From: Candidatus Levyibacteriota bacterium
GTDB taxonomy: Bacteria; Patescibacteriota; Microgenomatia; Levybacterales; UBA12049
Assembly: GCA_052034235.1 (NCBI GenBank)
Contig: JBPOIT010000005.1
Coordinates: 49,698 to 113,697, forward strand
DNA length: 64,000 bases
Direction: 5' to 3'
Below the pieces are notes generated by a model. The model was not told the DNA's origin, made no database searches, and saw only the letters and a list, made by a program, of their open reading frames with translations. Positions 1 through 24,445 of this stretch are shown here, one piece after another. The position numbers and the translations under genes are program-made. The first letter of the stretch is position 1. Every line of letters starts with the position of its first letter.

Positions 1-988
1 CTCTAACTACTCCTATTTTACGTGCTGAAGAGACAGTGCTTCTAGGATCTTCAAATAACTTTCCTACTTGTCCACGGTTCATTGCTTTATCTGGATCGAT
101 CGGTAAGCCTGTGAGTATTACTCCTACAGATTTTCTCACGATATGCTTCCTTCCTCCGTCATCTGTTAGAGTTACTCTGAGTGTTGACCCTTCATCGTCA
201 GTTGGTTCTGTCATTACAAAAATTTTTGCTGGTTTTTCTGGGACTATACCTTGGCCTTTTTTATTCAGCTCAGTGAGAGCATCCCCAACTCGTTCCTCCA
301 CTTCTTTCCCAGTCGGTACATGTTCTCCTTTTTGCTGAACATATCTTCCTTGAACGCCCCCTGCGTCAGTGGTTACAACTTCGTCCCTAGATGGTCTCGC
401 TAATCGTTCACGTACCTCCCTCGGCGAACGCCCTGTTGTATCAGATAGTCTATCAACCACTGCTCCTCGTACTCCTTCTTTGGTTCTTTCAGGTAGATTT
501 TCTTTTTTACCTTGATCTCTACTATCTCCCCCCAGAACTCGTCTCCTCTTCGGTATATCACGTGGAGTTGGACGATTTCTTGGTGGTGTTATATCAGCAT
601 CCAGCTTAGCGGGTGATCCGGTTGGATCAGCTGGTACTTCTGGCGGTTCTCCACTTGCTCTGCTTCTTGAAACTCTTGGTGGTAAGGTAGGTTCCACTCC
701 TTTATCGCTTGGTGTAGGTTTATCAGGTGGTACTTTTGGTCCTTCTCCATCTCCACCATTTCGTGGACCTTCTGCTGTAGCTGTAGGATAAATTCTCCCT
801 TTTAAAGAACCGCCCGGTGGAATTGGTTGTCTACGTGTTTCAATCGTCGCTGGAATTTGAGGAGTTGCACCTAAATCAACACCAACTCTCCGAATGCCAG
901 AATCTATAGTCGGACGGGTACCTCCCACTCCCGAATTCCCAGTTTGTCCATCTAAGCCTCTTTTTCCTCCTTGCCCTTCAACTGCCAT
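1..988 (-). CDS. Tagged island protein, partial (C-terminus lies beyond the window start). Its first ~118 aa are near-identical to those of the 4934..7741 gene: MAVEGQGGKRGLDGQTGNSGVGGTRPTID...
   Basis: Manual reverse translation from ATG at 988-986 gives MAVEGQGGKRGLDGQTGNSGVGGTRPTID, identical to the N-terminus of ORF 4934..7741. The frame stays open to the window edge. The + strand ORFs 36..338 and 391..609 are antisense shadows of it. Confidence 0.6.
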   Translation of the reverse strand, partial: MAVEGQGGKRGLDGQTGNSGVGGTRPTIDSGIRRVGVDLGATPQIPATIETRRQPIPPGGSLKGRIYPTATAEGPRNGGDGEGPKVPPDKPTPSDKGVEPTLPPRVSRSRASGEPPEVPADPTGSPAKLDADITPPRNRPTPRDIPKRRRVLGGDSRDQGKKENLPERTKEGVRGAVVDRLSDTTGRSPREVRERLARPSRDEVVTTDAGGVQGRYVQQKGEHVPTGKEVEERVGDALTELNKKGQGIVPEKPAKIFVMTEPTDDEGSTLRVTLTDDGGRKHIVRKSVGVILTGLPIDPDKAMNRGQVGKLFEDPRSTVSSARKIGVVR

Positions 989-998
989 AATGCCACGT

Positions 999-1004
999 AT
1001 TATA
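999..1004 (-). promoter_or_regulatory. Extended -10 box (TGTTATAAT) 10 nt upstream of the ATG of the partial tagged gene; implies a leaderless transcript
   Basis: The minus-strand sequence upstream of ATG 988 reads GTGTTATAATACGTGGCATT-ATG. No Shine-Dalgarno motif is present. Confidence 0.4.
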
Positions 1005-1180
1005 ACACGACGTAGGTTATTTCTCACTACGCGTGAGCATATAACATAGAGTCGGGTGAGCTAAAGGCGATAAGCGTCACGGCTTGCACCAGTTTGCCTG
1101 ACCTTCAAAAAGTTTTTGATACGCGTACTCATTTAAACAAACAATTATATTACAATCTTTGGATACTTATATTTTTTGAA

Positions 1181-3640
1181 TTATTCGCTAGCTGAATTTT
1201 GGGGAGACATGTTTCTAAAAGCTTTTCGCGCAGCTAACTTTTTGATATTTTTGATAGAGCTTCCACCTACGGTGTATTCCCTTGGTTCTTCACCCGGTAT
1301 GGTAATACGAACAGTGCATGTAAATTTTCTTTCAGGTCCTGAAACCTCTGTTATTTCATAGTGTGGTTCCTCCCATCCTTGACGACTCGCTAACGTTTGC
1401 AAAGCTTCGAGATAATTTCCTTGATTAACATGTACAGGTCTATCTCTTCGTGGAACATTTGAATAAATGATATTTTCGTATTCCCTATTTGGCATATGAC
1501 TTCGTGCCTGCTTGAGAACATCTTTTGCAGCAGCAGTTTCAACTTGATTTCGACTGGATCCTGTAAATTCATGTGATTGAAGTGTCACATCTCCAAAAGT
1601 GACGCTTGCGGTAACTTTGAATAATGGGTTATCTGGTGGCCCTTCTTGTGTAACCTCATAATTCGGAGGATTCCATGACTTAGTTTTGCACATTTCCTTG
1701 AGTTTTTTCCTTAAATCTGTTGTGGTATATTTATCTTGTGAAACATCTTCAACAGGGCTTTGAGAAATTTTCGAAAGGACATTCCATAACGCTAATTGTT
1801 CAGATTTAGTTTGAGAATGAGCTGTGATTTGGTCAGAGGTCATCGGTGTATCACCTATCTGCATAGTTGCAGAAGTGGTAGATTGCGGTTCATACGCTAA
1901 TCCATGTTCCTGTGTTGTAAATTCTGGAGCAGACCATACTCCACGTTGCTCTCCTAACTGAACAATTTGAGGTGCTAATTGGGGATTTTCATAGATATGC
2001 GCAAGGACATCTGATTTTAATCTTGCAACGGATCCATCTTCCAATACCGTTCCTCGTAAAATCAAATACTGATCATATACTGATAATCTACCATCAATTA
2101 GTCTCCTTTGCACTTCTACTCCTACATTTTCCGGAATAACTCCATCACGAGAGGTATCCCTAACAACTCTCGTAAATAAACTTGGATCTACCGATCCTAA
2201 GTCTTTTTGCTTTTGCACTCTAGCTACTTCTCTTTTGGATTCAGCGACATAAAATTTTTTCGTATGTATTTTTTCATTTGTAGTTTGAGAATTTAATCTT
2301 CGTGCCATTTTATCGAGTTGGTCAGGTGTATAGGGAGACTCTTCACCTCGCATATGAGCTATAACTATTCTTTGATTCACCAAACTCGCATGAAGTCTGA
2401 GACCAATACCTCCAGGTGCGTAAGCATCAACACCCATGGCCATATGTCCTTCTGGTTCTACGCCGAATGAAGCTCTACCATAAAGGACTTGTAACCTATC
2501 ATTTACTTCGTCTAGTGGCTCTCCAGATTTATTCATTGCTGCATTTTGATATATTATTCTTATATCTTCTGAATCCGGATCACGTACTAATCCATGCTGA
2601 TTCCTGTAGAGTGCTGGTAAACCATGACGTGCCAAATACTTACCAAAAGCAGTATTTAATTTTATTTTTGCCTCTTGAACGATTTTATATCCTGTCATAT
2701 CTTGACCAACCTGAATGATATTTCCATCCTCATCAGTGGCTAATCCGCTTTGAGAATCATACATTACTAACGATCCTTTTCTTGATCGGTCTCTTTCAAG
2801 TGCATCCGCTACAGAGCTGAGTAATGTAGCTTCTCCAAAACGGGGATGACTCGGATCTTTGAGTATTTCACTAAATTCTTTAGGGCTCATTCGTCCTGCA
2901 CTCGTAAATGCCGTTTGGGTAATCGAGGTTTTATCACGATCATTAAATGGAACATGCAACGTCAGTGTTGGTCTTGTTTGTCCAGGTAATAAACTCAAAC
3001 GGGATGCTGACAATGGACGAGGCAGCATAGGTGTAACAGTATCACTACCTCGATACCCCGTGAAGCCTCTTGCTTCAGCTTCTACGTCAATAGCTGTATT
3101 CGGTCGAACAACAGCGGAGACCTCTGATACTGATACTTGTAACGTATGTGTATTTGCTGGTTCTGTTACCACACCAAGTCCATCATCTAAATCTTTTGCT
3201 GTACTCGGGTCAATAGTTATGCCGTGCACTTCTTCACGACCGGTAAGTATCGCTTTGAGCTTGGGTAATGCGGCAACTTCACGCATAACTTCTGGAGGAA
3301 ATTCAAAACGCTCCACAATACCCGTTGCTCTTACTCGCCGTGGAGATGAAGCAGGTGCGGGTTCCTGTGCTTGTGTTTCAAAAATGACTCCTCGATCTGC
3401 TGGTTTTGTAGTCGGAGGAGGTGTATCTGAGGTTTCCCGGGGCTTTTCAGGTTCTGCAGGAGTTAAGGATGCCTGAGGAGCACTGATCCCCGGAGTGCTA
3501 TCTCTTCCACGTAGAATGGCACGTGTGGGTTCATGAGTAGAGGAAATTGGCCCAAGATGTCGGAGACCATCAGCTCCCAATCGACTTGGTGGGACCGGAT
3601 AACTTGGTCTATCTTGACCTCCTGAAAATTCAACACCCAT
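1181..3640 (-). CDS. RNase II/R-family 3'-5' exoribonuclease (RNB domain) fused to two C-terminal dsRNA-binding domains. It has an N-terminal MGVEF tag and a Pro-rich linker
   Basis: RNB motif I: HGITIDPSTAKDLDDGLGV aligns to E. coli RNase II VTIDSASTEDMDDAL. TVTPMLPRPLSASRLSL aligns to FNIPMLPRELSDDLCSL. The C-terminus carries two dsRBD-like units (…GPPDNPLFKVTASV…AAAKDVL and …GPERKFTCTVRI…GGSSIKNIKKLAARKAF). No cold-shock or S1 domains are present. The N-terminal ~150 aa are low-complexity. Confidence 0.75.
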   Translation of the reverse strand: MGVEFSGGQDRPSYPVPPSRLGADGLRHLGPISSTHEPTRAILRGRDSTPGISAPQASLTPAEPEKPRETSDTPPPTTKPADRGVIFETQAQEPAPASSPRRVRATGIVERFEFPPEVMREVAALPKLKAILTGREEVHGITIDPSTAKDLDDGLGVVTEPANTHTLQVSVSEVSAVVRPNTAIDVEAEARGFTGYRGSDTVTPMLPRPLSASRLSLLPGQTRPTLTLHVPFNDRDKTSITQTAFTSAGRMSPKEFSEILKDPSHPRFGEATLLSSVADALERDRSRKGSLVMYDSQSGLATDEDGNIIQVGQDMTGYKIVQEAKIKLNTAFGKYLARHGLPALYRNQHGLVRDPDSEDIRIIYQNAAMNKSGEPLDEVNDRLQVLYGRASFGVEPEGHMAMGVDAYAPGGIGLRLHASLVNQRIVIAHMRGEESPYTPDQLDKMARRLNSQTTNEKIHTKKFYVAESKREVARVQKQKDLGSVDPSLFTRVVRDTSRDGVIPENVGVEVQRRLIDGRLSVYDQYLILRGTVLEDGSVARLKSDVLAHIYENPQLAPQIVQLGEQRGVWSAPEFTTQEHGLAYEPQSTTSATMQIGDTPMTSDQITAHSQTKSEQLALWNVLSKISQSPVEDVSQDKYTTTDLRKKLKEMCKTKSWNPPNYEVTQEGPPDNPLFKVTASVTFGDVTLQSHEFTGSSRNQVETAAAKDVLKQARSHMPNREYENIIYSNVPRRDRPVHVNQGNYLEALQTLASRQGWEEPHYEITEVSGPERKFTCTVRITIPGEEPREYTVGGSSIKNIKKLAARKAFRNMSPQNSASE

Positions 3641-3650
3641 ATAAGCCTAT

Positions 3651-3659
3651 ATTATACCA
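3651..3659 (-). promoter_or_regulatory. Extended -10 (TGGTATAAT) 10 nt upstream of the ATG of the RNB gene. It overlaps the stop codon of the upstream gene
   Basis: The minus strand reads TGGTATAAT-ATAGGCTTAT-ATG. The same TATAAT-ATAGGCTyTw-ATG arrangement precedes the 3652..4746 gene. Confidence 0.45.
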
Positions 3660-4746
3660 TCTTTCCTCCCGTTACCGCGAGGATTTTACTTACCTGTTCA
3701 TCAACTGCTTTTGCACTTACAGATACAATTAATTCTCTATATGCACTCTTACTTACCGATGATTCAAAAAATGGATCAAAAAATTTCTCTCTCGTTGGCC
3801 TAATCCTATCTCTAGCCTCACTTCTAATTATTCCTGTCACTTCTGCCCATCTACTTTCGCCACTTTCTTGGGCTGTTATAGTTAACGCAGATAAAAAATT
3901 TGTTAAATTATGAGTACTTACCGTTTTTGGATAAGAAGGTAATAAGTACTCATGACTATGCAAATTATGTAATCCTGAATAGGACAAATTTGGCCATGTA
4001 AATAATTCTACTAAATGATCAACACTTGGTGGGATTCTGTGATGCATATAAGGATTTATATAATCACATACTGATAATCGAACATTTGGAATTTCATCAA
4101 CAATTTTCCGTACTTTTTTATCAATTGCTGCATATTGATCTCTGGTCGGAGTCGGACCTCTCCCTGAATAAAATACAAGATCAAGATCAGCAGGTTTATT
4201 TTTCGAACTTGGTTGTACATATGTTCCCAATGCATCCCTAACAAGCATGCCACCTGATGCACCACTCCCTACAAGAACAAGCCCTGCACCTGTAAAACCG
4301 AACGTATTATACTGTGATTCCATTTCTCCTTCAACAACCTGCATAACTTTAGCAACATCTGGATGGGTGAGCTCATTCATGAGTTGTGTATGGTTAGCAA
4401 CTGCTTCAGCTATTGTAGTTACAGGTTCTCTGACGAGTGAAATAGCATTTTGACGTCGCTCTTCTAATTGATCAAGGGGCATGCGTCTTTGCGGGTTATC
4501 CCATGGTGTTTGAACACGATCCTGTACAAATCGAGCAACCCGTACACTTAACAATCGAGCAGCACCCGAAGTTCTAGATACTTCTGCTCTTTCACCATTA
4601 TCTTCAATTATTCCTCCATTTAAGGCTGTTGTTGGGGATAAAACATTAGGTATAGGTCCAATTCGTGACAATTCTTTCCACCCGCCTGAGTCTCTATTTG
4701 TTGTTACTCTTCTTTCAGAATTTCCTCTGACATTTTCTATCCCCAT
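3652..4746 (-). CDS. Tagged Pol-beta-superfamily nucleotidyltransferase whose head domain resembles poly(A) polymerase / CCA-adding enzymes
   Basis: Motif GGMLVRDALG…(16 aa)…DLDLV matches the PolyA_pol/CCA head signature GGxVRDxLLG…DxD. N-terminal MGIENVRGNSER tag. Confidence 0.45.
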   Translation of the reverse strand: MGIENVRGNSERRVTTNRDSGGWKELSRIGPIPNVLSPTTALNGGIIEDNGERAEVSRTSGAARLLSVRVARFVQDRVQTPWDNPQRRMPLDQLEERRQNAISLVREPVTTIAEAVANHTQLMNELTHPDVAKVMQVVEGEMESQYNTFGFTGAGLVLVGSGASGGMLVRDALGTYVQPSSKNKPADLDLVFYSGRGPTPTRDQYAAIDKKVRKIVDEIPNVRLSVCDYINPYMHHRIPPSVDHLVELFTWPNLSYSGLHNLHSHEYLLPSYPKTVSTHNLTNFLSALTITAQESGESRWAEVTGIIRSEARDRIRPTREKFFDPFFESSVSKSAYRELIVSVSAKAVDEQVSKILAVTGGKMV

Positions 4747-4756
4747 AAGAGCCTAT

Positions 4757-4765
4757 ATTATAACA
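4757..4765 (-). promoter_or_regulatory. Extended -10 (TGTTATAAT) 10 nt upstream of the ATG of the nucleotidyltransferase gene
   Basis: The minus strand reads TGTGTTATAAT-ATAGGCTCTT-ATG. Confidence 0.45.
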
Positions 4766-4933
4766 CAGCAATAATTTTTGTAAATTACTAGGAGATTCCA
4801 TATCAGGACAATTGGTTTTTCTTAATTTCACGCTTTTTAAAATATCACACTTTTGGTAGTAAAAAATTGCAAATCTATTTCACTAGGTGCTTGAGGATAG
4901 TATATTAATACAAGCTCATCACAATGAAAATGT

Positions 4934-7741
4934 CTATTCTTGAGTATTCCTTGCGCTTTGTTCACTCAGACGGATAAGTTGTATCATATATGCATCTTTT
5001 CTTGGTCCTTCTAGATTTCGGACAATATTCTCAAACGCCCTTAACGTTACCTCAGTATCCATTCCATAGCTTATTTGTTTTTCAACGAGAGATCGAAGTA
5101 ATATTACTCGTTGACTATCAGTTAATTTAGTTTCTGGTGAAATGAGTCTATTTTGTACTGTTGTAAATAGTGTTTCATTTGCAGGTAAAACCCGTATCAC
5201 ATCTATATCCCAATCAGTAACTTTAATATCCTCCAATGTGTGTAAAGCACCCTCAGTGTCACCAGTTTTTACCTGACCTTCAAAAAGCTTATGATACACA
5301 TACTCACTTAATACTGATTCTCCAATCTCTTCTTTAACTGTTTGGAATAATTGGTTACCCCCTATATCAATTTGTGCAACTGCTAGATCGAGTAAATACT
5401 CTTGTCTTTTTTCAGGCGAAAGAGTTCTATCAGCTCTTACTGAGACAGCACTCGCATCGATTTCCGCATTTAGTCTTTCTTTTTCAGCAGCAGGAGGTGG
5501 ATCTTCAGTATAGATATCCGCTAAATTTTGCATTGCCATAGTACGAAATTCACTACGCGTTTCACCGATAATCTCATATAATTCATTTTTATCAGCATCA
5601 GTTAAAATACCATATGATTTTAATCCATTTCTTGCTGCAATCGATCTTTCCTGTGGGTCTTTTATCGTTCTAATTTTATCCATAGCATTAGTTACATCTC
5701 TCTCGGCTTTAGTTGTATCTCCCGTTTGCATAGCTTTTTCTCCTGCTTCCATATATCCGTCAACTATAACACGAGAAAATTCATCTAAAGTAAAACTTCT
5801 TACAGCATCTGTGCTTTTCCCAATTCTAGCCAAATATGCATTTTGTATCCTGGCAACACCTAGTTTATCCCCATTAGCTGCATAAGTCCTCCCTAACTGA
5901 AATAATTGTATGAGTGCCATATCACTTTCAGAAATATCAAGTATGTGTGCTTCTGCTTGTGGATAGTGACTAGCTGAAGGTTCATCCATGTAGCGATCTG
6001 CTAATGCTTTAAGTAATGCATCTCGACTAATATTGTCTTCAGGATTTGTTTTCTTTTCCAAAGAACCAACAAGTTCCTCGGCATCCACCAATGTTAGTGA
6101 TTCTTCTCCAGGAGAGAAAATCGGAGTGTCAACACGCTCCCTATGTAACATTGCTGTATATATAGAAGCCTGTATTTCTACCAAACTGCTCCGAAGAATG
6201 CCATCAAGGTCACTATCTCCTGTATTAAATTCTACATAATCCATTTGATCAGCTATTGCTCTCGCTGTATCGATATACCCGGTTTGTGCGTATAAAATAG
6301 CTATATTCCCGCGCAACTCGTTTCTTGTTAGTTCAGGTATACTAAATTCATCTTCTACAAATTCTCCTACTTCAATTAGTTGTCTTGCTTTGTCCATCTC
6401 TGCTTTTTCACTCTCTGGAGAAATATTTGCAGCTAGTTTTGCCATCTTTATTTGAGTGTTAATAACACCTATTCCATGTGATTCACCAATGCCTTGTGAT
6501 AAAAAAGTGCTTGTCTCTCTGAATCCTTCAACCAAATCTTCCGGTGGAGGTAATTCCAATTCTTTGAATAAACTGAGTAGATAACCATATTTAAGCAAAC
6601 GTCTACCAGGTTCATCATCTGCGGCTGATCTTTGGAATTCTCCTATTAATGCTTGAGCTTTTGCTGCAGGATCGTATGGTTGACCTGATTCTGCTGTGAC
6701 TCCCCTTGCTTCAGGCAAAACTTCTTCCTGCCCCTCTTCTAGTGTAATTGCTGGCACAACACTCAGAGCAGGCCTTGCAGGAGGTGTTTCGTCGACCATA
6801 CTCTCATCAGTGTCATCTCCAGGATGGTGTATTACATCTCCGGGTGGAGCTGATACAGTTTGTTGTGCATCACCATCAGTAGTAGTCGGTGATCCGGGTA
6901 GAATTCCTTCAGGGACTTTTCTACCAGCCTTCGCGTAATCAACTTCAATCCACTCACGAACGACATCATTAGGGGGCTCTTTTCCTTCATGATCATTTCT
7001 ATATAACTTTTTTCTCCATTCTGTACGTTTTGAGATTATAAATTCTATTGAAGGCAGTTGAAACCTATCTCCTAAAGCTGGCTGTTCAATCACATCTCTT
7101 CCTTGTAACATAAAATCCTTCGGCTCAACTCTTAGTACCTCAGGATGAACGTTCAAATCCTCTGGAATTTCTTCACCTGCAACTCGAAAATATTCTCTCT
7201 TCCATCTTCTCACTTCATCTGGTGGAGGCTCGGTACCGTCATGCTCACTTCTATATTGCTCAGCTCGCCATCCTGATATTATTTCGATCATAACTGATAC
7301 TGGTGGTGTCGTTAGAGGTGCTGATGTTTTTTTTCTCTCTGCTGGAGGCTGAGGTACATCAGGTTTACCTGAGACTGGCTCTTCGGTAACTTCTGGCGGT
7401 TCTCCACCTGCTCTGCTTTCTGAAACTCTTGGTGGTAAGGTAGGTTCCACTCCTGTATCGCTTGGTGTAGGTTTATCAGGTGATACTTTTGGTCCTTCTC
7501 CATCTCCACCATTTCGTGGACCTTCTGCTGTAGCTGTAGGATAAATTCTCCCTTTTAAAGAACCGCCCGGTGGTATTGGTTGTCTACGTGTTTCAATCGT
7601 CGCTGGAATTTGAGGAGTTGCACCTAAATCAACACCAGCTCTCCGAATGCCAGAATCTATAGTCGGACGGGTACCTCCCACTCCCGAATTCCCAGTTTGT
7701 CCATCTAAGCCTCTTTTTCCTCCTTGCCCTTCAACTGCCAT
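4934..7741 (-). CDS. Tagged helical-repeat (TPR-like) protein. It has a duplicated W-rich ~45-aa motif and is a paralog of 7846..10158
   Basis: N-terminal MAVEGQGGKR tag plus a GVDLGATPQIPATIETRRQP motif. An internal duplication (ISGWRAEQYRSEHDGTEPPPDEVRRW / ISKRTEWRKKLYRNDHEGKEPPNDVVREW) is present. The long C-terminal alpha-helical region shares a motif with the next gene (LTDSQRVILLRSLVEKQISYG vs LTDSDRIILFQQIAEKQIQFG). Confidence 0.55.
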   Translation of the reverse strand: MAVEGQGGKRGLDGQTGNSGVGGTRPTIDSGIRRAGVDLGATPQIPATIETRRQPIPPGGSLKGRIYPTATAEGPRNGGDGEGPKVSPDKPTPSDTGVEPTLPPRVSESRAGGEPPEVTEEPVSGKPDVPQPPAERKKTSAPLTTPPVSVMIEIISGWRAEQYRSEHDGTEPPPDEVRRWKREYFRVAGEEIPEDLNVHPEVLRVEPKDFMLQGRDVIEQPALGDRFQLPSIEFIISKRTEWRKKLYRNDHEGKEPPNDVVREWIEVDYAKAGRKVPEGILPGSPTTTDGDAQQTVSAPPGDVIHHPGDDTDESMVDETPPARPALSVVPAITLEEGQEEVLPEARGVTAESGQPYDPAAKAQALIGEFQRSAADDEPGRRLLKYGYLLSLFKELELPPPEDLVEGFRETSTFLSQGIGESHGIGVINTQIKMAKLAANISPESEKAEMDKARQLIEVGEFVEDEFSIPELTRNELRGNIAILYAQTGYIDTARAIADQMDYVEFNTGDSDLDGILRSSLVEIQASIYTAMLHRERVDTPIFSPGEESLTLVDAEELVGSLEKKTNPEDNISRDALLKALADRYMDEPSASHYPQAEAHILDISESDMALIQLFQLGRTYAANGDKLGVARIQNAYLARIGKSTDAVRSFTLDEFSRVIVDGYMEAGEKAMQTGDTTKAERDVTNAMDKIRTIKDPQERSIAARNGLKSYGILTDADKNELYEIIGETRSEFRTMAMQNLADIYTEDPPPAAEKERLNAEIDASAVSVRADRTLSPEKRQEYLLDLAVAQIDIGGNQLFQTVKEEIGESVLSEYVYHKLFEGQVKTGDTEGALHTLEDIKVTDWDIDVIRVLPANETLFTTVQNRLISPETKLTDSQRVILLRSLVEKQISYGMDTEVTLRAFENIVRNLEGPRKDAYMIQLIRLSEQSARNTQE

Positions 7742-7749
7742 AATGCTCT

Positions 7750-7758
7750 ATTATAGCA
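7750..7758 (-). promoter_or_regulatory. Extended -10 (TGCTATAAT) 8 nt upstream of the ATG
   Basis: The minus strand reads TTTTGCTATAAT-AGAGCATT-ATG. Confidence 0.4.
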
Positions 7759-7845
7759 AAAACTAATTTATTTATATAATTTTATAAATAAACATAAATA
7801 AAGACTGCAATCAAAAATATCACTGGAAATTATATTTCCAAATAA

Positions 7846-10158
7846 TTACTTTGTTCCACTTTGTACATATAGGCGTACTAAATTGAATATAGATTCAATT
7901 TTTGATAGTTCATCGTCTTCCATAAAAACAACATCTCTCAAATCTCTTAAAGCTTTAGCGCTGTCAAATCCAAATTGTATTTGTTTTTCTGCTATTTGCT
8001 GAAATAAAATAATGCGGTCTGAATCTGTCAATTGTTCGTTTTCTGCCAGAACATCTTCATGAACACTAGTAATAAATGCTTCGTCGTTGGGTAAAAAATC
8101 TACCATGACTCCATACACCCAATTATTTTTATCCACTCTTTTCATTGTTTTCATTGCATCTTGATAGTCTCCGGTTTCAATTTGCGTACGAAATAATACA
8201 TTAGCACCATAATCACTTAACGGTGCATCTTGCATAGTGGTTTTTATCTCGTCATAGAGTGGATAAGTTCCATCAGTTGACATTCCTATTTGAGTATGTG
8301 CCAATTGAATTAAATTATCATTTCTATCCATAATACCTATCCTCGTATCTTTTTGTAGACTCGCTGCACAGGAAGTAAGCTCATCTTGTAACTGTTGTCT
8401 GTCTTGAGCAGAAGCTGTATCAGGCATTATGTTTGCAATACTTACAATAGCCTGTGTTCTATGATCATAATCAAATGTTCTGATAATTCCATACATTTCC
8501 CCTCTTATTTCAGGCGTGGAGAATGCTGGATAAGAAAAGCTTTCAACAACGGCTTTCATCTTTGTCCCATCATCGGTTATCTTACCAATTCCTTCCAAAG
8601 CGGCACGCGTATTCCCTGCTTGTAAATAACCCTCTACTTTAGAAACTATATTATTTTTCACATGATTACTCTTTGTCATCGGTAAATTATGAAATGAAGT
8701 TTCAATAGTTTCTGTAGCCCATCTTTCAATACGTTTTACTCCCACTTCATCACCATTTGCTGCATATGCTCTTACGATATGAGCAAGTTGAGGTAGAGCA
8801 AAATCAGGATTAAATATCTTACGAACACACACTTCAGCATCAGAATATTTCCCCGCATCTATTAAACTTTTTGTGACGTCAATTAGCAAGCTATCTCGTG
8901 CATCATGAGGATCAAATTCAGTAATTTTGTCGGGCATTAATGTAATCTCTTCAAAAACTTTTCGGACTGTAGGCGTTATTTCACCTGGTTGAGTAGGTGG
9001 TTTTACTTTGCGCTCTTGCCATATGTTATGGGCAGTTGCCATTGCCCACGATCCAAAGACATCACTCTTTGTCTTCATATCGGCATCCGGATCTTTGGAC
9101 ATTTTTAATAATTCATCGAGTACCTGCTGAGCTGAACCGACATCTCCAGTTGCTGAATAATTATCAGCAAGTCTATGTAACAATTTTGCTTTTATATCAA
9201 TAGCCGATTGTGTTTCTTGACTGAATGTTCCTGTTGTAATCTTACTTTTTGCCTCTGCAAAATGTGCACGTGCCTCATCATCAAGTTCTGTACCGCTTAA
9301 TAAATGCCCTACATCAATTAATCTATCGACTTCCAACTTTTTTGTTGGTGCGTCTTGAAGTTTCATCATATCTTCATACGCAGTCTCAATATCTCGACGT
9401 ATCTTCTCATCATATGGAAAATGACGTTTTTTTCTTTCTTCACCAATTAATATAAGTCGTCTCGACCGTCTTTCTAAAGATAGTTCAATCGTTGTTAATC
9501 GCATCGCATCAAGTATGCCCTCAGCTTCTACAATTGGATCAATTTTTTCAGGCGGCTTTGTAGCTTCTACCTTACGAGTTTCTTTCTTTTTTGTAACTTG
9601 TTGAGGGACTTCAAGGTTTGTATCTGCAGGTTCTGGTAAAACTACAGTCCAATGAATTTCTCTAGGGGTAGATCGTCCATCTGTCAATGAAGTGTCCCTA
9701 ACTACTTGTAAATGACGAGGAGTAGTTCCTGCTGGAGCTTCCACGGGTTCTAATCGAGTATCATCAGATGGTATCTGTGGTTTTTTTCCGATATTATTAT
9801 GAGGAGATTCACCAGATGGAGGATCTCCTGATACTGGTAAGCCTGAAGTATCTGAATCACTACGAGAATCTCCGACAGGAGGGGTGATTGTTGGAACATC
9901 CGGTTTCCCATCATGAACTATCGAACTCGGACCGTCTCCTGGGGTATCACCTGATGCTGCTCGAGGTATTGTTACACGATTTGTGTCAATACCCCCTGGT
10001 AAAGTTGGAGGAGTAACATGAGTAGTTATTCTTGCTCTTAAGTTCCTAGATGGTCCTAAATCAACACCTTTCCGGGACAATCCACTACCGAGGACCCTAT
10101 CTTTCCGTTTTGTGTCAAGAATTCCATTAGGTCTATCTCCGCTGTTTTCAATAGTCAT
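7846..10158 (-). CDS. Tagged helical-repeat (TPR-like) protein, paralog of 4934..7741
   Basis: N-terminal MTIENSGDRPNG tag and an RKGVDLGPS motif. The C-terminal half is homologous to the previous gene (AYAANGDEVGVKRIE vs TYAANGDKLGVARIQ). Confidence 0.55.
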   Translation of the reverse strand: MTIENSGDRPNGILDTKRKDRVLGSGLSRKGVDLGPSRNLRARITTHVTPPTLPGGIDTNRVTIPRAASGDTPGDGPSSIVHDGKPDVPTITPPVGDSRSDSDTSGLPVSGDPPSGESPHNNIGKKPQIPSDDTRLEPVEAPAGTTPRHLQVVRDTSLTDGRSTPREIHWTVVLPEPADTNLEVPQQVTKKKETRKVEATKPPEKIDPIVEAEGILDAMRLTTIELSLERRSRRLILIGEERKKRHFPYDEKIRRDIETAYEDMMKLQDAPTKKLEVDRLIDVGHLLSGTELDDEARAHFAEAKSKITTGTFSQETQSAIDIKAKLLHRLADNYSATGDVGSAQQVLDELLKMSKDPDADMKTKSDVFGSWAMATAHNIWQERKVKPPTQPGEITPTVRKVFEEITLMPDKITEFDPHDARDSLLIDVTKSLIDAGKYSDAEVCVRKIFNPDFALPQLAHIVRAYAANGDEVGVKRIERWATETIETSFHNLPMTKSNHVKNNIVSKVEGYLQAGNTRAALEGIGKITDDGTKMKAVVESFSYPAFSTPEIRGEMYGIIRTFDYDHRTQAIVSIANIMPDTASAQDRQQLQDELTSCAASLQKDTRIGIMDRNDNLIQLAHTQIGMSTDGTYPLYDEIKTTMQDAPLSDYGANVLFRTQIETGDYQDAMKTMKRVDKNNWVYGVMVDFLPNDEAFITSVHEDVLAENEQLTDSDRIILFQQIAEKQIQFGFDSAKALRDLRDVVFMEDDELSKIESIFNLVRLYVQSGTK

Positions 10159-10222: not shown

Positions 10223-11032
10223 TTATTGGGAGTATTGATACATCAGCAACGTGTGGTAATCATCCGGTTCTACTATGGGGCTTTGAAGCGAATGAAAACC
10301 TTGTGGAGTTAATACAGGAGAGAGATCACCTTTGACTAAATTGGGGAAAATAACCACTATTCCATTTGGTTCAAGCGCATTTGGTAATAAAGACGCAAGT
10401 TGTGCTACCTCTATGGGAGTACTCAGAACATATTCCATTCCAAATACTGTCACGATATCAGTTTTGGGAATTCCAAGAGTATTTAAATAACTATCTATAT
10501 CTTCTTCAACTATTTGACCCGTAAATCCTGACTCATTTAGACCCTCTCTTGTTAAGTGAGAAAAACCTTTATCAACTAGTGTCATATGCGACAAATCAAT
10601 ACCCAATGTTTCTGCAAACGCTTGTTCTCCTTGTGCCTTACCAGCTCCGAGAGCGAGATACGTTGGTCTCTCAGGCAATGTAAATCCACTTTTATGAATT
10701 TTCCGAAGCAATTCTTTTGCAATACTAATACCTCTTTGAGGAGAGGTAACATCTTCAAAATTATCCCTCCGATCTATAGTACGACCACTTATCTTTATTC
10801 TATCTGAGACACCACTTGCATTTTCTACAGATGCTTCACCATTTCTTTTCTGATGAAGTTCAGTTCCTAGATGAATAGATTGTGTGTATGTGGTAATAAT
10901 TGATCTATGTGTGGCAGGATTATCGGTTATCTGACCACTATGAGTTGTTCCCACATCTTTACCAGAATCTATTAGTTGTGGAATCTTGAATGTTGTTGAA
11001 ACCCTACCTGACTTTGCTATTTCGATACCCAT
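10223..11032 (-). CDS. Tagged class I SAM-dependent methyltransferase
   Basis: Motif I is YLALGAGKAQG (hhhGxGxxG). An acidic post-I residue follows (TLVDKG). C-terminal motifs are IVTVFGMEYV and LEPNGIVVIF. The N-terminal MGIEIAKSGR tag is followed by IDSGKDVGTTH…PATHRS, which resembles motif 2 of the tag. Confidence 0.5.
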   Translation of the reverse strand: MGIEIAKSGRVSTTFKIPQLIDSGKDVGTTHSGQITDNPATHRSIITTYTQSIHLGTELHQKRNGEASVENASGVSDRIKISGRTIDRRDNFEDVTSPQRGISIAKELLRKIHKSGFTLPERPTYLALGAGKAQGEQAFAETLGIDLSHMTLVDKGFSHLTREGLNESGFTGQIVEEDIDSYLNTLGIPKTDIVTVFGMEYVLSTPIEVAQLASLLPNALEPNGIVVIFPNLVKGDLSPVLTPQGFHSLQSPIVEPDDYHTLLMYQYSQ

Positions 11033-11109: not shown

Positions 11110-11445
11110 CTATTTTACAGCACCTTTTTTTGGTTTTTTCGCAAATCTTTCTTCAGCTCGACTTACTGCTAATTGTCCTGGCCCAGCAATGGTGGCTTTA
11201 GTTTCGTCTCCTCCCGCACTCGCGGTAATTACTGCTTTCCCGCCTTGCACCTCACCTTTAACAGCTGCAATAACATTAGGTTTTGCACCTGTCGTTCTAA
11301 GAATTTGCCTAGTCTCAGCAACAGCACCTCTCTTAAATAAAGTACCACCAAGAACTAACTTAGCATGTCTTTCTGCTTTTTTAGCTTCTCTCAGTTCTTT
11401 ATTTGTAGGCACTGCACCTGGTTTTTTCCCACCTTCTACTGACAT
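11110..11445 (-). CDS. Tagged small basic (K/A/G-rich) protein, possibly nucleic-acid binding
   Basis: Sequence MSVEGGKKPG…AKKPKKGAVK shows a strongly basic, histone-tail-like composition. TATAAT lies 9 nt upstream of the ATG. Confidence 0.4.
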   Translation of the reverse strand: MSVEGGKKPGAVPTNKELREAKKAERHAKLVLGGTLFKRGAVAETRQILRTTGAKPNVIAAVKGEVQGGKAVITASAGGDETKATIAGPGQLAVSRAEERFAKKPKKGAVK

Positions 11446-11779: not shown

Positions 11780-12865
11780 ATGCGAGAAATAAAAAATGGA
11801 GGAGATAGATTACCAGATAAAAAAGGTCGAAGGCACGATGTAACTGTACCTCAAACATGGTCAGATTTAATAGGTGGTCCAGACAAAACACCTCGACCTA
11901 GGGCTACAATTGAAACTAGACGTCCCGTTGATGTCGAATATAGTCGTGTAAAAGTCCCCTTTGAAAGAGAAGAAAGAGAAGAATTACTTACTCAACTTAC
12001 GGTAAATCCAGGAGATGGTATTGCTGAAGTACATAATCCCTATCCAATAGCCGTTGTAGGCGTAAGAATAGATCATCATGGGCAAGCTCAACATATCAAA
12101 TTCGTCCAAACCAGAAATGGACTTATCATGCCTATACCAGACAATCCAAATAGTGAAGATACTCTTATTGGTTTTTTTGTGGGTAGGCGACGAGTAAATG
12201 GTGGTGGTGCAGTTGCTCTTCGTGACAGTAGATATCCATCTATTGATCCTCAGTATCGTACAAAACCTCTTGCACGACAAGACGACCCAACAGGTGATCT
12301 CGCATCCTTTAAACCAACCCAACCCACTGATTTATCAAGACCATATCTCGGTGCTGTCCTCCGTCAAGGTGACTATCCAGCTGTTCCACTTGTTACAGCA
12401 GAAATAGATGGTACGTATAAAGAATTATTAAGTCGATTGGATGGCATACGGCCAGGAAATCGATGGCATTATGCTCAAGATGTCGGACTATTTCAAGAAT
12501 TAGGATTTGATCCCAACAATACTGAAGGCCTTTTTGATAAATCTCATAAAGATAGTCTATCGGCACAAGAGCAACATGTTAGAGAAATTGTAATACAACA
12601 GCATCAGTCTAAACGTCATTCAACTGGTATTTCACCTAACAGATTTGAGTTACTTGTTTATAATACTCGTCGAGATATAAGACCCGAACCAAACTCTGTC
12701 ACATCAACTGATCATTTAAGGGATGCACGTACTGGTGAAGCTCCTTTAGAAATTAAATACACCCGGGGGAGACGAATTAGTTGCCCTCCTAGCACTCCAT
12801 CTATAGTTTACTCACTTGCAGCAGCATTCCCTATCCAAGTAGTTTCCGAATGGGATGGGATATAA
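11780..12865 (+). CDS. Tagged hypothetical protein (variant tag MREIKNGGDR). It carries the ATIETRRP motif shared with 4934..7741
   Basis: An ORF with a Pro-rich N-terminus. PRPRATIETRRPVD matches PQIPATIETRRQP of the 4934..7741 protein. No recognisable catalytic domain. Confidence 0.45.
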   Translation: MREIKNGGDRLPDKKGRRHDVTVPQTWSDLIGGPDKTPRPRATIETRRPVDVEYSRVKVPFEREEREELLTQLTVNPGDGIAEVHNPYPIAVVGVRIDHHGQAQHIKFVQTRNGLIMPIPDNPNSEDTLIGFFVGRRRVNGGGAVALRDSRYPSIDPQYRTKPLARQDDPTGDLASFKPTQPTDLSRPYLGAVLRQGDYPAVPLVTAEIDGTYKELLSRLDGIRPGNRWHYAQDVGLFQELGFDPNNTEGLFDKSHKDSLSAQEQHVREIVIQQHQSKRHSTGISPNRFELLVYNTRRDIRPEPNSVTSTDHLRDARTGEAPLEIKYTRGRRISCPPSTPSIVYSLAAAFPIQVVSEWDGI

Positions 12866-13513: not shown

Positions 13514-16500
13514 CTATGGATCTACATCTAAGTCACCAGCAAGTTCGAGTAATATGTCTCTCAATCTTTCTCTTCCGGATCGAGTTGAATCTGGAACAGC
13601 TGTAGTTGTACCAGCTCTTCTTTTTTCTTCAATAGAACTTGTAACAATCTCACGTACCTGAGCATTAACCTCTTGGGTTACGTATTTTGTAATAGCTTCC
13701 TCATACATCCCATAAAGCATCGTTAGCGCCATTTTACTACCCGGATCTGTTGGATCTTCAAAATATTTTACTAAATATTCTCTCAGTCCCTCTAGAAATG
13801 GAATAGTATAAGTGTTTGTGGCTAATGTCGCATCGATAATTTCTTTATTGAGTTCAGTATCATAATAATGTTCTGGAGTAATTACACCGGGGGCAAGAAC
13901 CTTGGCTGCTAATCTATTTGCGACACTTTCCATATCGTGCATAATCGGTATTCCAACTGCCCGCTCTACTGGAATGAAAATAGCTCCTCTGGACATGACA
14001 ACTTTAGGATAAAATAAGTCTCTATCATTCACAACTGTTCCAATTCCTGGCAAATCAAATAACTGTCTACTTAAGCGACTTGCTCCTTCTGGAGTTGTAG
14101 AAGCTAATATGACATTAATATCATGTTGTATCCCTAATCCACTTGTTTCGTCAGTAATACTAGCAAGACTTTCTATCTGGTTTCCTACAGGCATATTGGG
14201 ATCACGATATGAAAGTTTATGCACAATTAAATCCCACATTTCGAGAAAAGCTTGTTGTTCTACTGCTGTCAAACCAGGTATTGGATGTCCTAATATTTTT
14301 TCCCATTTATCAGAGTCTGTAAATCGTTCTCTTACCGCTTCTTTTATAACAAGCTCTCTTTGTTCATGAATATGAGTATCAATTTGCATTATCAATGCTT
14401 CTAAGACCTTTCTTTTTGAACTTTCTTTATCAGTTGATTCGTATTCTTGAATTAGTTTATCTCTTTGCTCGTCTGCAGTAGAATTTGGTAATGTAATACC
14501 ATATTCTTGCGTTTGAGCTTCAAGACCATCTAGAGCTCCAATAACTAGACGCTCAAGAGGAGCGCTAGCTATTGCTTCTACTTCCTGACGAACCAGCTCT
14601 TTCGGGGTATCATACATACTTGATTGTGGCATAGATTTGGAATCGAACCAGGGATCAATTGTTTTTTCTAAGACTACAGGAGTCCGACCTGGGATAGAAA
14701 TTTCCTCAGTATATGTTGTAGGTTCAGTTGCATTCGGGATACGTCTTCCCCCAGTAGGATCTGATAGATGATACCATACAGCAGCATAGAGAGAATCTTT
14801 AATGTCTTGAGAGGATTTCTGTAATCTCCATATTTCTTCAGAACGTGCTTCAACAATTTTATCGATACCAACTTCCAAAGCAGTTTGTATTATCCTCCTC
14901 GTTTCTGGATCATTTATCTTATGATTATAGAATTTATAAGGATCTCCAGAATTTCCTCCACCGGGGACTTCCTTAAAACCTAGAAATCGTACACCATTAA
15001 CTTTTGAATCAAAAGCGGCATTAAGTATGCCAATTAATTTCCGCGACCACCAGTCTTCTCCACCCAAATATTTCAGTGCTTCTGAGTATTCTTTTTTTGT
15101 ATATGCTATTCCGGATGGCCCCAGATCATACAGACGCCCTTCAGGAGATACGACTAAATCAACACGAGATGGTAGATTTGCTGGATCATCAACACGAATA
15201 CAAAAAGGATCACCTTTATCTACTCTACCTATCATTGTTCCATTAGGTAAATGCCTTAATACATTTCGCGATTGTTCAGGAATACCTAGGCTATCTCCCA
15301 TTACACTAATGTCTGTTTCATCACCTAAACTAAATGTTCCTCTGAATCTGGCACTTGACAACATACTTCTTGGTGCATGACGTGGTTCTTGTCCTATATA
15401 CCAAACTGTATAACCAAATTTTCCACCTTGTAGTACATGTTCTTCCAGAATACTCGCAACTGGACTTGGACTTGTGCTATTGTTTGTGGAAGTAGCTTGC
15501 TGGCCTTCTTCTGCAATAACCAAATTAGTTAACGGACGTGGTGCAGCACTAAGTGGATCTTTCTCAAGATAAGCTTTTTCTGCAACATAATTTGTCGTTA
15601 CTGCGACAAATAATTGCTGTGCTGCAGCAGAAAGAGCATTTGTGTTTATAACAAGATTATCATCGGTAAGAGTATTTGGATCTACAGTATGATTACTATT
15701 AAATCCATCTGCACCAAATATTTCACCCAAATTTCTTTCCAACCAACCTAGGATTCTTGATTGATACTCGCCACCCTCCCCATCATATTTCAATCCTTCT
15801 TTAACAAATTTCTTACAATAATCATAGATTTCATCATTTGATGGATATAACCCTGTATCTTTATACTTATCTTTAAGACCTTTAAATGTTTTATCCAAAG
15901 AAACACCTTCTGCCAATTTTCCAGGCTTCATGCCAATTATCGCTCCATTTAAAACACTTCTAAACAAAGCTTTATCCCCGTCATCTCCTTCAAAAGTGCT
16001 CGCAAGTAAATCTGGCAAAGCAGCATAATGTTTATCCTCAGAATATCCATCAATGGGTCTGGCAAGGCTTCCAAATCCAACTGAGACATCAGCATCCCCT
16101 GCGACGACATTCCAATATATTACCTCTTTACCAGTATCTCTTATCCTATCTCCAAGAAGTCGCCAATCTTCTGCACCACTCGGAGCAAGAACAATAACTT
16201 GCATCCCTTCTCTAACCGCTCTTTCTGCAAGTTGCTGCGTAAATACTGATTTACCTTCTCTTGGTCGGCCCAACACTGTAACACCTAGCAATTGTTCTGT
16301 TGAAATCGGCAATTCCCCAAGATCTGGGCCACGATTTATGCCTAAAGCTGCATTCACAGCGGTACCAAGTCTGATCATTCGTGTTCCATCAGAAAATGTA
16401 GGAAGAACAGTGTTTGTTGTAAGTGGTCTATCATAGTCAAATCCTTTAACTTGTGTTGTTGGATATCTCATCAACTCTGCTAATTGTCCACTACTAACTA

Positions 16501-17821
16501 TTGCATCAAGTGGTACATGAGACGGAGGAAGTTGTAATGCTCCTTCTGGAATCGCTGTTACTTTGATGCTTTTTGAATCCATTGCAGATGTAAGCATATC
16601 TTGAAGTGCTGATACACGCTCAGGGCTCTGGGCAGAGACTTCAACTTCCGTTGTCCACAAAGGTTTGTCTACTTCCGCTAATTTTTTAGCTATAGCTGTA
16701 AAATCTTCCTTTACAAGTTTATCCTTTTCAGCGCCTTGTTTTGCCTTATTAGCAAATAGTTGAGCTAGACCACCTGAGTCCTCTCTCTCTTTCTTACTCA
16801 ATGGACGTGCAACAACCGATATGCTAAAGGGCTCTGTCCCGCCGTGAGTCACCAGCCATTCAGCCCAATTTTTTTCAGTTTTGGCGCCTGGCAATACACT
16901 TGTTGCAGCGCTTAACATATCACTTATTCCCTGAAAAGATTGCAAGTGTTCTGGCAAGGCAGGTGCCTCCTTCTTAAGATCAACGCGTAATTTTCCAGTG
17001 AAACGATCTGTTCTATCTGCTTGATCTAACGATATATTTGATCCTTGAGATTTTTCAGGAAATGTATGAATAGGAGAAGTACTTGTATGGCCAAAATTAG
17101 TTTCTAGAAAATAATTTTTTTCTTCATCCAACCCAAACCTGTAAGTAACCGATCCAGGAGACTGATCTGTTCGTGTCTCTTGGAGAGTTCTTGCTCTTTC
17201 ATCCAACTCACTTACGACATGAGCCGGGTCAATTTGTTGACCTATTAAGAAACTAGTAATGCGCTTTACACCAGTATATGGTACGTCTGGATTTTCAATG
17301 GGAGGAGGAGATTCTAGAAGAATACCACCGTGTAATCCTAGCTCGAATCCGCCGTCAACAATTAGCTTTCTCGTTCGCTCTCCTCGCACCAATTCTTCCC
17401 AACGATGTAATATACCTACGTTCGGATCAGTAACAGTCGGCTCTTCTTCTCGAGACTGGTGATCACGATCACTAGTTTCATTTGAAACAGATCCCGTAAC
17501 ATTAACGGGTTCTTCCTGGGGGAGCGTTACAGGCGGATTAGGTTCCCTAGGAGGCTCTACATCTGAAGTTGAAGCATGAACTGTAATAATATGCCCGTCA
17601 GGTAAACGATTAACTGTAGTAGTAGTTCCATCGGTGGCAGTTGAAAATATTCGACTCGTTGGTCCACTTCGTCTAGAAGATTCTGTTTGGTTAGGCGGTC
17701 CTGTTTGGTCAGATGTTCCTGCAATTAATTGGTCAAATGAACTAACCGGTCTTGTAGGTGGACGAGCTGGAAGTCCCGTATTTTCTGGATTCCTTCTCCC
17801 TTTTAAAAATTCCCAACTCAT
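13514..17821 (-). CDS. Tagged giant (1435 aa) multidomain protein with a central P-loop NTPase domain (FtsK/HerA/VirB4-VirD4-like?)
   Basis: N-terminal MSWEFLKGRR tag and a P/T-rich linker. Walker A is VLGRPREGKSVF. A candidate Walker B, LVIAEEGQQ, lies ~250 aa downstream. No other domain was recognised. Confidence 0.5.
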   Translation of the reverse strand: MSWEFLKGRRNPENTGLPARPPTRPVSSFDQLIAGTSDQTGPPNQTESSRRSGPTSRIFSTATDGTTTTVNRLPDGHIITVHASTSDVEPPREPNPPVTLPQEEPVNVTGSVSNETSDRDHQSREEEPTVTDPNVGILHRWEELVRGERTRKLIVDGGFELGLHGGILLESPPPIENPDVPYTGVKRITSFLIGQQIDPAHVVSELDERARTLQETRTDQSPGSVTYRFGLDEEKNYFLETNFGHTSTSPIHTFPEKSQGSNISLDQADRTDRFTGKLRVDLKKEAPALPEHLQSFQGISDMLSAATSVLPGAKTEKNWAEWLVTHGGTEPFSISVVARPLSKKEREDSGGLAQLFANKAKQGAEKDKLVKEDFTAIAKKLAEVDKPLWTTEVEVSAQSPERVSALQDMLTSAMDSKSIKVTAIPEGALQLPPSHVPLDAIVSSGQLAELMRYPTTQVKGFDYDRPLTTNTVLPTFSDGTRMIRLGTAVNAALGINRGPDLGELPISTEQLLGVTVLGRPREGKSVFTQQLAERAVREGMQVIVLAPSGAEDWRLLGDRIRDTGKEVIYWNVVAGDADVSVGFGSLARPIDGYSEDKHYAALPDLLASTFEGDDGDKALFRSVLNGAIIGMKPGKLAEGVSLDKTFKGLKDKYKDTGLYPSNDEIYDYCKKFVKEGLKYDGEGGEYQSRILGWLERNLGEIFGADGFNSNHTVDPNTLTDDNLVINTNALSAAAQQLFVAVTTNYVAEKAYLEKDPLSAAPRPLTNLVIAEEGQQATSTNNSTSPSPVASILEEHVLQGGKFGYTVWYIGQEPRHAPRSMLSSARFRGTFSLGDETDISVMGDSLGIPEQSRNVLRHLPNGTMIGRVDKGDPFCIRVDDPANLPSRVDLVVSPEGRLYDLGPSGIAYTKKEYSEALKYLGGEDWWSRKLIGILNAAFDSKVNGVRFLGFKEVPGGGNSGDPYKFYNHKINDPETRRIIQTALEVGIDKIVEARSEEIWRLQKSSQDIKDSLYAAVWYHLSDPTGGRRIPNATEPTTYTEEISIPGRTPVVLEKTIDPWFDSKSMPQSSMYDTPKELVRQEVEAIASAPLERLVIGALDGLEAQTQEYGITLPNSTADEQRDKLIQEYESTDKESSKRKVLEALIMQIDTHIHEQRELVIKEAVRERFTDSDKWEKILGHPIPGLTAVEQQAFLEMWDLIVHKLSYRDPNMPVGNQIESLASITDETSGLGIQHDINVILASTTPEGASRLSRQLFDLPGIGTVVNDRDLFYPKVVMSRGAIFIPVERAVGIPIMHDMESVANRLAAKVLAPGVITPEHYYDTELNKEIIDATLATNTYTIPFLEGLREYLVKYFEDPTDPGSKMALTMLYGMYEEAITKYVTQEVNAQVREIVTSSIEEKRRAGTTTAVPDSTRSGRERLRDILLELAGDLDVDP

Positions 17822-22683: not shown

Positions 22684-22821
22684 ATAGACATATTATAGTA
22701 CTAAAACGGATATTGTCAATGTGTATATTAGTACTAATCTGAATAGTGGATCAGTTGGGAAATTTGCGTATAAATAAGATTGGGCTTTGATTTATACTAT
22801 CTATGCATAAGAATTGAGGCT

Positions 22822-22868: not shown

Positions 22869-22929
22869 AATCCCGAAATATTGTTAGAATTATATTATTT
22901 AGAACTTTATTAGTTTCAATATATATCTG

Positions 22930-23001
22930 TGAGCCCCGGGGGACTCGAACCCCCAACCAATACCTTAAGAGGGTACTGCTCTACCATTGAGCTAGAGGCC
23001 C
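22930..23001 (-). tRNA. tRNA-Lys (anticodon CUU)
   Basis: The reverse complement is GGGCCTCTAGCTCAATGGTAGAGCAGTACCCTCTTAAGGTATTGGTTGGGGGTTCGAGTCCCCCGGGGCTCA. It folds as a cloverleaf with anticodon loop CTCTTAA. Confidence 0.85.
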
Positions 23002-24431: not shown

Positions 24432-24445
24432 ACGGAGAACTGCCC

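Follow-up and report, generated by a model that had tools for sequence, protein, structure and literature searches.

How do two otherwise unrelated bacterial genes come to begin with almost the same DNA, and what might the shared beginning do? We analysed 64,000 nucleotides (nt) of Candidatus Levyibacteriota DNA (contig JBPOIT010000005.1, positions 49,698 to 113,697; hereafter the window) in which two same-strand genes, A and B, open with a near-identical N-terminal coding module that we call a tag. MAFFT alignment of positions 600-1000 with 7350-7760, a repeat finder (family D1) and a base-by-base comparison at offset 6753 all gave one ungapped block, 636-993 against 7389-7746, with 351 of 358 nt identical (98.0%). 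The copies lie 6.75 kb apart. A match of 358 nt at 98% is far above chance in a 64-kb window, where the next-best repeats found by the repeat finder span 44-68 nt at 74-91% identity. The initial annotation had described a near-identical duplication at 632-988 and 7385-7741; pairwise alignment confirms it, with those coordinates correct to within 5 nt.

The identity is confined to one module. It runs from 5 nt upstream of both ATGs (988 and 7741, minus strand) to codon 118. Past that codon there are ~35 nt of weak similarity and then none, and the rest of the two proteins, from residue 119 to the end (583 residues in A, 817 in B), align at best with a BLASTP E of 0.70. The claim that near-identity stops at the N-terminal module and that the bodies are unrelated thus stands. 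The -10 boxes of both genes lie upstream of the block and are not common to them, differing in sequence context and spacing.

The shared block is coding sequence. Its overall GC content is 0.48 against 0.17 at third codon positions (GC3), the latter as in the remainder of genes A and B, which indicates translation in this frame. The seven mismatches (655, 666, 667, 702, 730, 821 and 885) fall in six codons, five changed non-synonymously and one synonymously. Four of the seven fall within the block's final 67 nt, and across residues 1-86 the two tags differ by a single conservative change, V35A. We ruled out an RNA element: the block has no Rfam match and its folding energy is ordinary (z = +0.89). 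A diversity-generating retroelement target was ruled out as well, the mismatches being a mixture of T/C, C/T, A/C, A/G and G/A rather than adenine-specific; no reverse transcriptase domain occurs among the window proteins scanned.

The copy is recent, as the initial annotation had proposed. None of the 69 four-fold degenerate sites in the block differs between A and B, whereas 81 of 676 (12%) differ between orthologous core genes of the window and a sister strain (contig L083, ENA ERZ23795167; Fisher p = 4e-4). The two strains thus separated well before the copy was made. Because the genes look leaderless, the 5' end of the block falls at about the predicted transcription start; its flanks carry no homology that would account for the tract ends. 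The A/B block is genuine and very recent: one same-strand gene has received, without reciprocal exchange, a copy of the other's N-terminal coding module. Gene conversion, template switching, or duplication followed by fusion may each have been the route. Once in place, such direct repeats could mediate deletion or duplication of the intervening 6.75 kb.

Independent assembly data support two genuine copies. A Logan contig (L087, run SRR34217540) is 100% identical to window 7450..3206, includes the body of gene B, carries the B-specific variants at 7408 and 7419/7420, and ends exactly 30 nt (k-1) beyond 7420. A k=31 graph must branch there if the reads hold a second version of the block, so the position of this stop argues that both versions exist. 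The initial annotation had raised the possibility of an assembly artefact. The Logan contig is consistent with two copies and makes a misjoin unlikely; formally excluding every kind of misjoin would take read mapping.

The A/B tag is a rare sequence. A word-indexed search of 5.8 billion clustered proteins, which also covers the suggested hunt for further copies, recovered this N-terminus only on A and B, both of them encoded on one 250-kb NCBI contig. Neither GTDB species representatives nor JGI metagenomes yielded further copies when scanned with the 118-aa tag. Gly, Pro, Ser, Thr and Arg are abundant among its ~118 residues, which are probably disordered. A single-sequence AlphaFold2 model of gene A, with a mean predicted local distance difference test score (pLDDT) of 36, was too poor for use; residues 1-170 lacked secondary structure. 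Genes A, B and most of their neighbours had no match in Pfam, NCBIfam, PHROGs, PADLOC or PDB sequence searches, and neither A nor B showed a toxin domain in Pfam, NCBIfam, PADLOC or PDB. We recognised no immunity-like gene. Downstream of B comes a gene for another tagged protein, of 364 aa, and what lies downstream of A is beyond the window.

Gene A reads as a three-part mosaic, composed of the tag shared with B (residues 1-118), a second module shared with the sister strain (140-253) and an orphan body. The second module is 49% identical over 114 aa (BLASTP E 1e-21) to residues 66-179 of the product of L083 7657-9759, where it sits directly behind another tag, of the sister strain's own type. 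A module boundary in this part of gene A is thus indicated by two comparisons made independently: A/B identity stops at codon 118, ~20 codons ahead of the conserved module, and cross-strain homology starts at codon 140. A likeness of this module to the neighbouring 770-aa TPR-like protein was unsupported (local alignment score 36). The body of gene B is a paralogue of that TPR-like protein (25% identity over 636 aa, BLASTP E 1e-35), and the product of L083 1-1774 is related to both at 23-26% identity. Upstream of gene A lies a relic of a B-like paralogue, 84.6% identical over 52 nt to 5260-5311 (blastn E 2e-10 within the window), which indicates that the region was rearranged earlier.

Genes A and B belong to an island that ends at a tRNA gene. 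UvrA in the window is 79-80% identical to homologues in metagenome-assembled genomes, including a Candidatus Levyibacteriota genome, and 55-63% identical to those of many Microgenomates and other Patescibacteria, which identifies the organism, an uncultured and ultrasmall bacterium, as a Microgenomates-group Patescibacterium; its GC content is ~38%. The island occupies window 1-22928 and is at least 22.9 kb long, its left end lying beyond the window. Its right-hand boundary is exactly the 3' end of tRNA-Lys(CTT). Window 22929-30063 is 95-96% identical in DNA to the sister contig, and five core proteins compared between them are 90-100% identical. This homology starts precisely at the tRNA 3' end, where window 22929 corresponds to L083 16154 and the sister tRNA-Lys occupies 16154-16226. 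Left of the tRNA the two strains carry unrelated DNA save one 337-nt stretch at 70% identity. The tRNA-Lys 3' end is thus a hotspot of integration or replacement, and the island is replaceable and probably mobile. No copy of the tRNA 3' end resembling an att repeat occurs elsewhere in the window. A tRNA-like fragment at ~22815-22890, containing the T-arm-like sequence GGATTTGAACCC, adjoins tRNA-Lys; ARAGORN does not call it a tRNA, and an earlier integration may have left it behind.

The sister island carries a different tag, on many proteins. Nine of its genes, including one for a large ATPase, begin with a ~62-aa sequence of the form M-x(2-4)-E ... PVD ... [VI]EP-x-A-x-x-RPG ... SRF[AS]P-x(3)-L. 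When a hidden Markov model (HMM) was built from any eight of these tags, the ninth ranked first (E 1e-16 to 2e-4). DNA matches among them reach at most 41 nt at 88% identity, so this tag is conserved at the peptide level. Most tagged sister genes have a TATAAT just before the ATG. Tags of the window type and of the sister type gave no cross-hits. Bodies are common to both islands and tags are not; the tags are island-specific and separable from the bodies they precede.

Two further features of the sister contig concern where its tag occurs. Between two core genes that overlap in the window (~25934-25952), the sister strain has a single 209-aa gene (L083 19315-19944), counted among the nine, with its own TATAAT box and a sister-type tag, so tagged genes can occur singly outside the island. 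The sister ATPase (L083 10001-14305) repeats the tag motif NRFTPSLELGG at its extreme C-terminus (residues 1408-1430), where it could serve as a pseudo-substrate or self-docking element.

Most genes of the window's island show a looser form of the same organization (Table 1). About 12 begin M-x-x-E (MAVE, MGVE, MGIE, MTIE, MSVE, MGAE, MSWE; also MSIAE and MAFQE), followed by a stretch of 60-130 aa in which 70-90% of residues are G, P, S, T, R, Q, N, D, E or K. Glutamate stands fourth in the products of 9 out of 13 island genes, as opposed to 1 out of 30 non-island genes in the window (p = 1e-5). Upstream of most island genes lies a TATAAT or TGnTATAAT box whose last base is 6-10 nt from the ATG, and these genes lack a Shine-Dalgarno sequence. 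The same placement recurs at several core genes, such as 21529-22683, 46632-47309 and 51971-52711. From this promoter geometry, leaderless mRNAs are probably the rule in the island and widespread in this Patescibacterium.

Several of the tagged products are orphan proteins, and three have additional features. The protein encoded between genes A and B that carries an RNB (RNase II/R) domain joins it to a tag and two or three eukaryote-style dsRNA-binding motifs, an arrangement unusual for a bacterial exoribonuclease. In the N-terminal part of the weakly hydrophobic membrane protein, three tandem 51-nt units (18036-18184, family D2) encode SGP(A/T)T..ARI(S/T)E. The array triplicates one of the loose motifs of the window tags, and a Logan contig also ends within it. 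The possible lipoprotein has a signal (RRSGR, a hydrophobic stretch and LSGC) at residues 55-78, behind a tag-like N-terminus, and lacks a clear -10 box; either its start codon lies further downstream or a tag precedes the signal peptide.

Table 1. Features of the window discussed in the text, in window coordinates.
Feature	Position	Strand	Remarks
Gene A	1..988	-	First 329 codons in window; full product P0002, 701 aa
Second module of gene A (aa 140-253)	237..573	-	blastn 70% identity to L083 9230-9566
Repeat copy A	636..993	-	Codons 1-118 of gene A with the 5 nt preceding the ATG
Extended -10 box of gene A, TGTTATAAT	999..1007	-	10 nt before ATG, outside repeat
Relic fragment upstream of gene A	1087..1136	-	Repeat family D3; resembles internal 3' part of gene B (5260-5311)
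RNB + dsRBD protein, tagged	1181-3640	-	M-x-x-E start, disordered N-terminus
Tagged gene	3652-4746	-	M-x-x-E start, disordered N-terminus
Gene B	4934..7741	-	935 aa; tag plus body paralogous to neighbouring 770-aa TPR-like protein
Repeat copy B	7389..7746	-	Codons 1-118 of gene B with the 5 nt preceding the ATG
Extended -10 box of gene B, TGCTATAAT	7750..7758	-	8 nt before ATG, outside repeat
TPR-like gene, tagged	7846-10158	-	770 aa; M-x-x-E start, disordered N-terminus
Tagged gene	10223-11032	-	M-x-x-E start, disordered N-terminus
Tagged gene	11110-11445	-	M-x-x-E start, disordered N-terminus
Tagged gene	11780-12865	+	Begins MRE; disordered N-terminus
Tagged gene	12969-13460	-	Near ATPase
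HerA-family P-loop ATPase	13514..17821	-	1435 aa; begins MSWE, then disordered stretch; candidate tag partner or hub
Membrane protein, tagged	17944-19836	+	Weakly hydrophobic; three-fold repeated motif
Possible lipoprotein, tagged	19875-20936	-	Lipobox after residue 75; start codon uncertain
PDC-S01 defence candidate, AAA_14/DUF4143 ATPase	21529-22683		PADLOC E 8e-87; untagged, between tagged genes and tRNA
tRNA-Lys(CTT)	22929..23001	-	ARAGORN and Rfam; 3' end is the exact right-hand island boundary

Each of the two islands encodes a giant ATPase, which sequence comparison places as a very divergent and rare member of the HerA family. Exhaustive HMMER searching of 1.84 billion representatives found eight relatives, the closest of them on the sister contig (25% identical). 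A word-indexed protein search returned only the ATPase itself, and no relatives were found in IMG/VR or JGI metagenomes. A profile of six homologues searched against the PDB matched HerA, including HerA of defence complexes (E 1e-17 to 1e-19), ahead of FtsK (5e-6) and EccC (0.3-0.9). HerA_C and DUF87 domains were found on two homologues (P0006 and P0007); the window ATPase alone has no Pfam match, and it contains no transmembrane or hydrophobic segment.

We read the genome contexts of four of the eight relatives. On three contigs from distant genomes (L084, L085 and L086) and on that of homologue P0008, the ATPase gene is always followed by one for a conserved 455-523-aa partner, which contains a DIVGGDR motif and weakly matches TraG-D_C. 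A homologue of this partner was sought in the window's island and not found. In the three distant genomes the ATPase and its neighbours begin MSVE, MANFE, MPTPEE, MPTRE, MAIE or MKFE, starts that are anecdotally consistent with an M-x-x-E-like tag.

On balance, we read the tag as a docking or addressing module peculiar to its island and copied between genes by non-reciprocal recombination. Such a module would link varied island proteins, among them the RNB and dsRBD nuclease, TPR-like proteins and the membrane protein, to one partner that the island itself encodes. The HerA-type hexameric ATPase would be the likeliest candidate. TPR-like proteins are typical peptide binders and would offer an alternative. 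Recombination among tags would then supply new or existing bodies with a label that fits the resident partner, the A/B pair being its most recent instance. Tagged proteins may be destined for a cytoplasmic multi-effector complex or for export. That the ATPase and a membrane protein are themselves tagged speaks for assembly; export stays plausible given that Patescibacteria live as epibionts and that the cargo includes a nuclease.

A bolder version of this proposal is worth stating tentatively; we rate it as less likely than not, but as realistic. Patescibacteria may possess an undescribed coupling system in which each mobile island variant pairs a giant HerA-family ATPase with unrelated proteins. 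They would all carry, on leaderless mRNAs, a disordered M-x-x-E label specific to their island, which would direct them to the ATPase to be assembled or to be delivered to a host. Gene conversion of the label, of which the A/B pair would be a case caught in progress, would keep label and receptor matched and would recruit new cargo.

Several observations weigh against a docking module. Within the window, leave-one-out HMMs failed to recover the tags from each other (E 0.5-100). Beyond the A/B pair these tags share only the M-x-x-E start, composition, loose short motifs (GVD.G; A/T-R/T-I-S/T-E) and promoter geometry. The call of disorder draws on composition and a low-confidence single-sequence model, and the link from tag to ATPase, or to any other partner, is read from sequence. 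Six differing codons are too few to show selection on the tag. As for the island's mobility, no integrase domain occurs in the proteins scanned, and the left end, where one might lie, is beyond the window.

The tag might instead be an N-terminal secretion or translocation signal that sends polymorphic effectors to a host cell, with the ATPase powering delivery and each copied tag making a new body secretable. We regard this as unlikely, though much of the locus fits it. One N-terminus precedes unrelated bodies, and tag type co-varies with ATPase variant, as EssC variants of type VII secretion systems (T7SS) do with their cognate substrates. The cargo looks effector-like, with an RNB nuclease bearing dsRNA-binding domains and TPR-like proteins, and the literature describes Patescibacteria as host-dependent epibionts. 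Against this, searches of Pfam and NCBIfam and of hydrophobicity found no hydrophobic, Sec, Tat or known trafficking domain. In particular, no hydrophobic segment of the Sec, Tat or lipoprotein type lies within the first ~35 residues of A, B or most tagged proteins; the possible lipoprotein differs in having one at residues 60-78, behind its tag.

The composition of the tagged set also argues against export. A soluble ATPase, a membrane protein and a putative lipoprotein are tagged as well, and a tag on the ATPase and a lipoprotein signal behind a tag are awkward for a simple export signal. Since N-terminal extensions occur on nearly every island gene, the ATPase and membrane protein included, a shared docking or adaptor label fits at least as well. 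No toxin/immunity pairs were recognised and no channel component was identified. The nearest solved relatives of the ATPase are HerA proteins of repair and defence complexes, with secretion ATPases matching far less well. The initial annotation had seen in the duplication the recombination signature of cassette or polymorphic effector families. Its exchangeable N-terminal module is upheld, and the sister island strengthens it; the effector label is not, as no trafficking or toxin domain was found. Recent exchange of an N-terminal module is established, and the term polymorphic effector is not demonstrated.

Neutral rearrangement is similarly unlikely. It would make the block a by-product of segmental duplication or illegitimate recombination, the extensions tolerated disordered leaders that share no partner, and M-x-x-E a need of leaderless translation or of the promoter. 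The failed leave-one-out test within the window suits it, as do the 52-nt B-like relic, which marks a rearranging region, and promoters positioned for leaderless mRNAs genome-wide; five non-synonymous differences and one synonymous are compatible with neutrality. The sister island, however, keeps a 62-aa tag with fixed motifs (PVD, [VI]EP, RPG, SRF[AS]P..L) on nine proteins that have nothing else in common, with DNA matches no longer than 41 nt at 88% identity, and this points to peptide-level selection. Core genes that look leaderless do not share the M-x-x-E start (1 of 30), and the A/B block stops ~20 codons before a module of gene A that was defined independently.

Two further explanations are very improbable. 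In a metagenome-type assembly a 358-bp repeat exceeds typical k-mers, so that one copy might be a misjoin or a collapsed or duplicated repeat, but the copies differ at seven sites, each has unique flanks on both sides, the Logan contig with the B body and B variants stops k-1 (30 nt) past the last variant, and relatives in the sister island lead one to expect a tag on both bodies. A prophage-like island, whose tags would be capsid-targeting sequences or propeptides cut after Glu as in T4 and phiKZ head proteins, would suit an element beside a tRNA, an N-terminal [GAST]-x-E resembling the S/A/G-x-E cleavage motif of phiKZ head proteins, and the FtsK/HerA-type ATPases with which PRD1-like viruses package their genomes, but ten island proteins have no PHROGs match, IMG/VR holds no relatives, no capsid, portal, terminase or protease was recognised, and a cut after residue 4 would remove nothing useful.

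The locus offers a testable handle on little-known biology. Patescibacteria make up a large share of bacterial diversity, and almost nothing is known about how they organise or deliver the proteins that they use on hosts or against invaders. Here a short label differs between two islands at one chromosomal site in near-identical strains, sits on nearly all island proteins including a HerA-type motor, and has just been copied between genes. The duplication thus led to a wider pattern, that of island-specific tags co-varying with a giant HerA ATPase. If the label is an address, it would represent a new targeting code, cargo would be predictable from sequence alone, and signal and receptor would be evolving in concert. 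If it has no partner, the locus is still a clean case of module-limited recombination making mosaic genes in a reduced genome.

Comparison with known systems places the tag near several of them. By sequence, the module belongs to no described trafficking domain, effector-associated domain (EAD), signal peptide or diversity-generating retroelement target, and in the literature searched neither these tags nor this ATPase family was found described for Patescibacteria. Polymorphic toxins (LXG/T7SSb, Rhs and contact-dependent inhibition systems) likewise join a near-identical N-terminus to unrelated C-terminal bodies, recombine at the module boundary and leave gene relics nearby. Unlike them, the genes here lack a known trafficking domain, no toxin or immunity gene could be recognised, their bodies span 580-820 aa, and the tags extend to an ATPase and a membrane protein.

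Two ATPase-centred systems also invite comparison. T7SS are built around EssC/EccC, a large P-loop ATPase of the FtsK-HerA superfamily and of ~1400 aa, whose variant goes with strain-specific neighbouring genes. The ATPase described here instead matches HerA best, with EccC at E 0.3-0.9, and has no transmembrane helices; the signal would be N-terminal and disordered, and no WXG100 or LXG protein was found by Pfam among the island proteins scanned. HerA-effector defence systems (SIR2-HerA, DUF4297-HerA) and HerA-NurA come closer in profile matches (E 1e-17 to 1e-19) and in setting, a variable hotspot beside a PDC-S01 candidate. They differ in that the island has no SIR2, DUF4297 or NurA partner, its ATPase is two to three times longer, and PADLOC finds nothing for the island proteins.

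EAD coupling offers a parallel in organization. In those systems one adaptor is found both on the central NTPase and on effectors encoded beside it, and copies that lie next to each other are also the most closely related (Kaur et al. 2020, eLife, PMC7159879). EADs are small, folded and mostly alpha-helical, and sit on STAND, vWA-MoxR or GTPase cores (PMC7159879); the tag here is Gly/Pro-rich, probably disordered and without a Pfam EAD match, and the core is a giant HerA-family ATPase. What the two have in common, clearly so in the sister island, is a short N-terminal module repeated on an NTPase core and on varied neighbouring proteins, with attached domains that vary between close relatives (PMC7159879). 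In the sister island, nine genes including the ATPase share one tag (E 1e-16 to 2e-4), while the window ATPase shares just the M-x-x-E start and composition with its neighbours. The nearest copies are also the closest here: the A and B tags are 98% identical, and the two islands' tag types do not detect each other.

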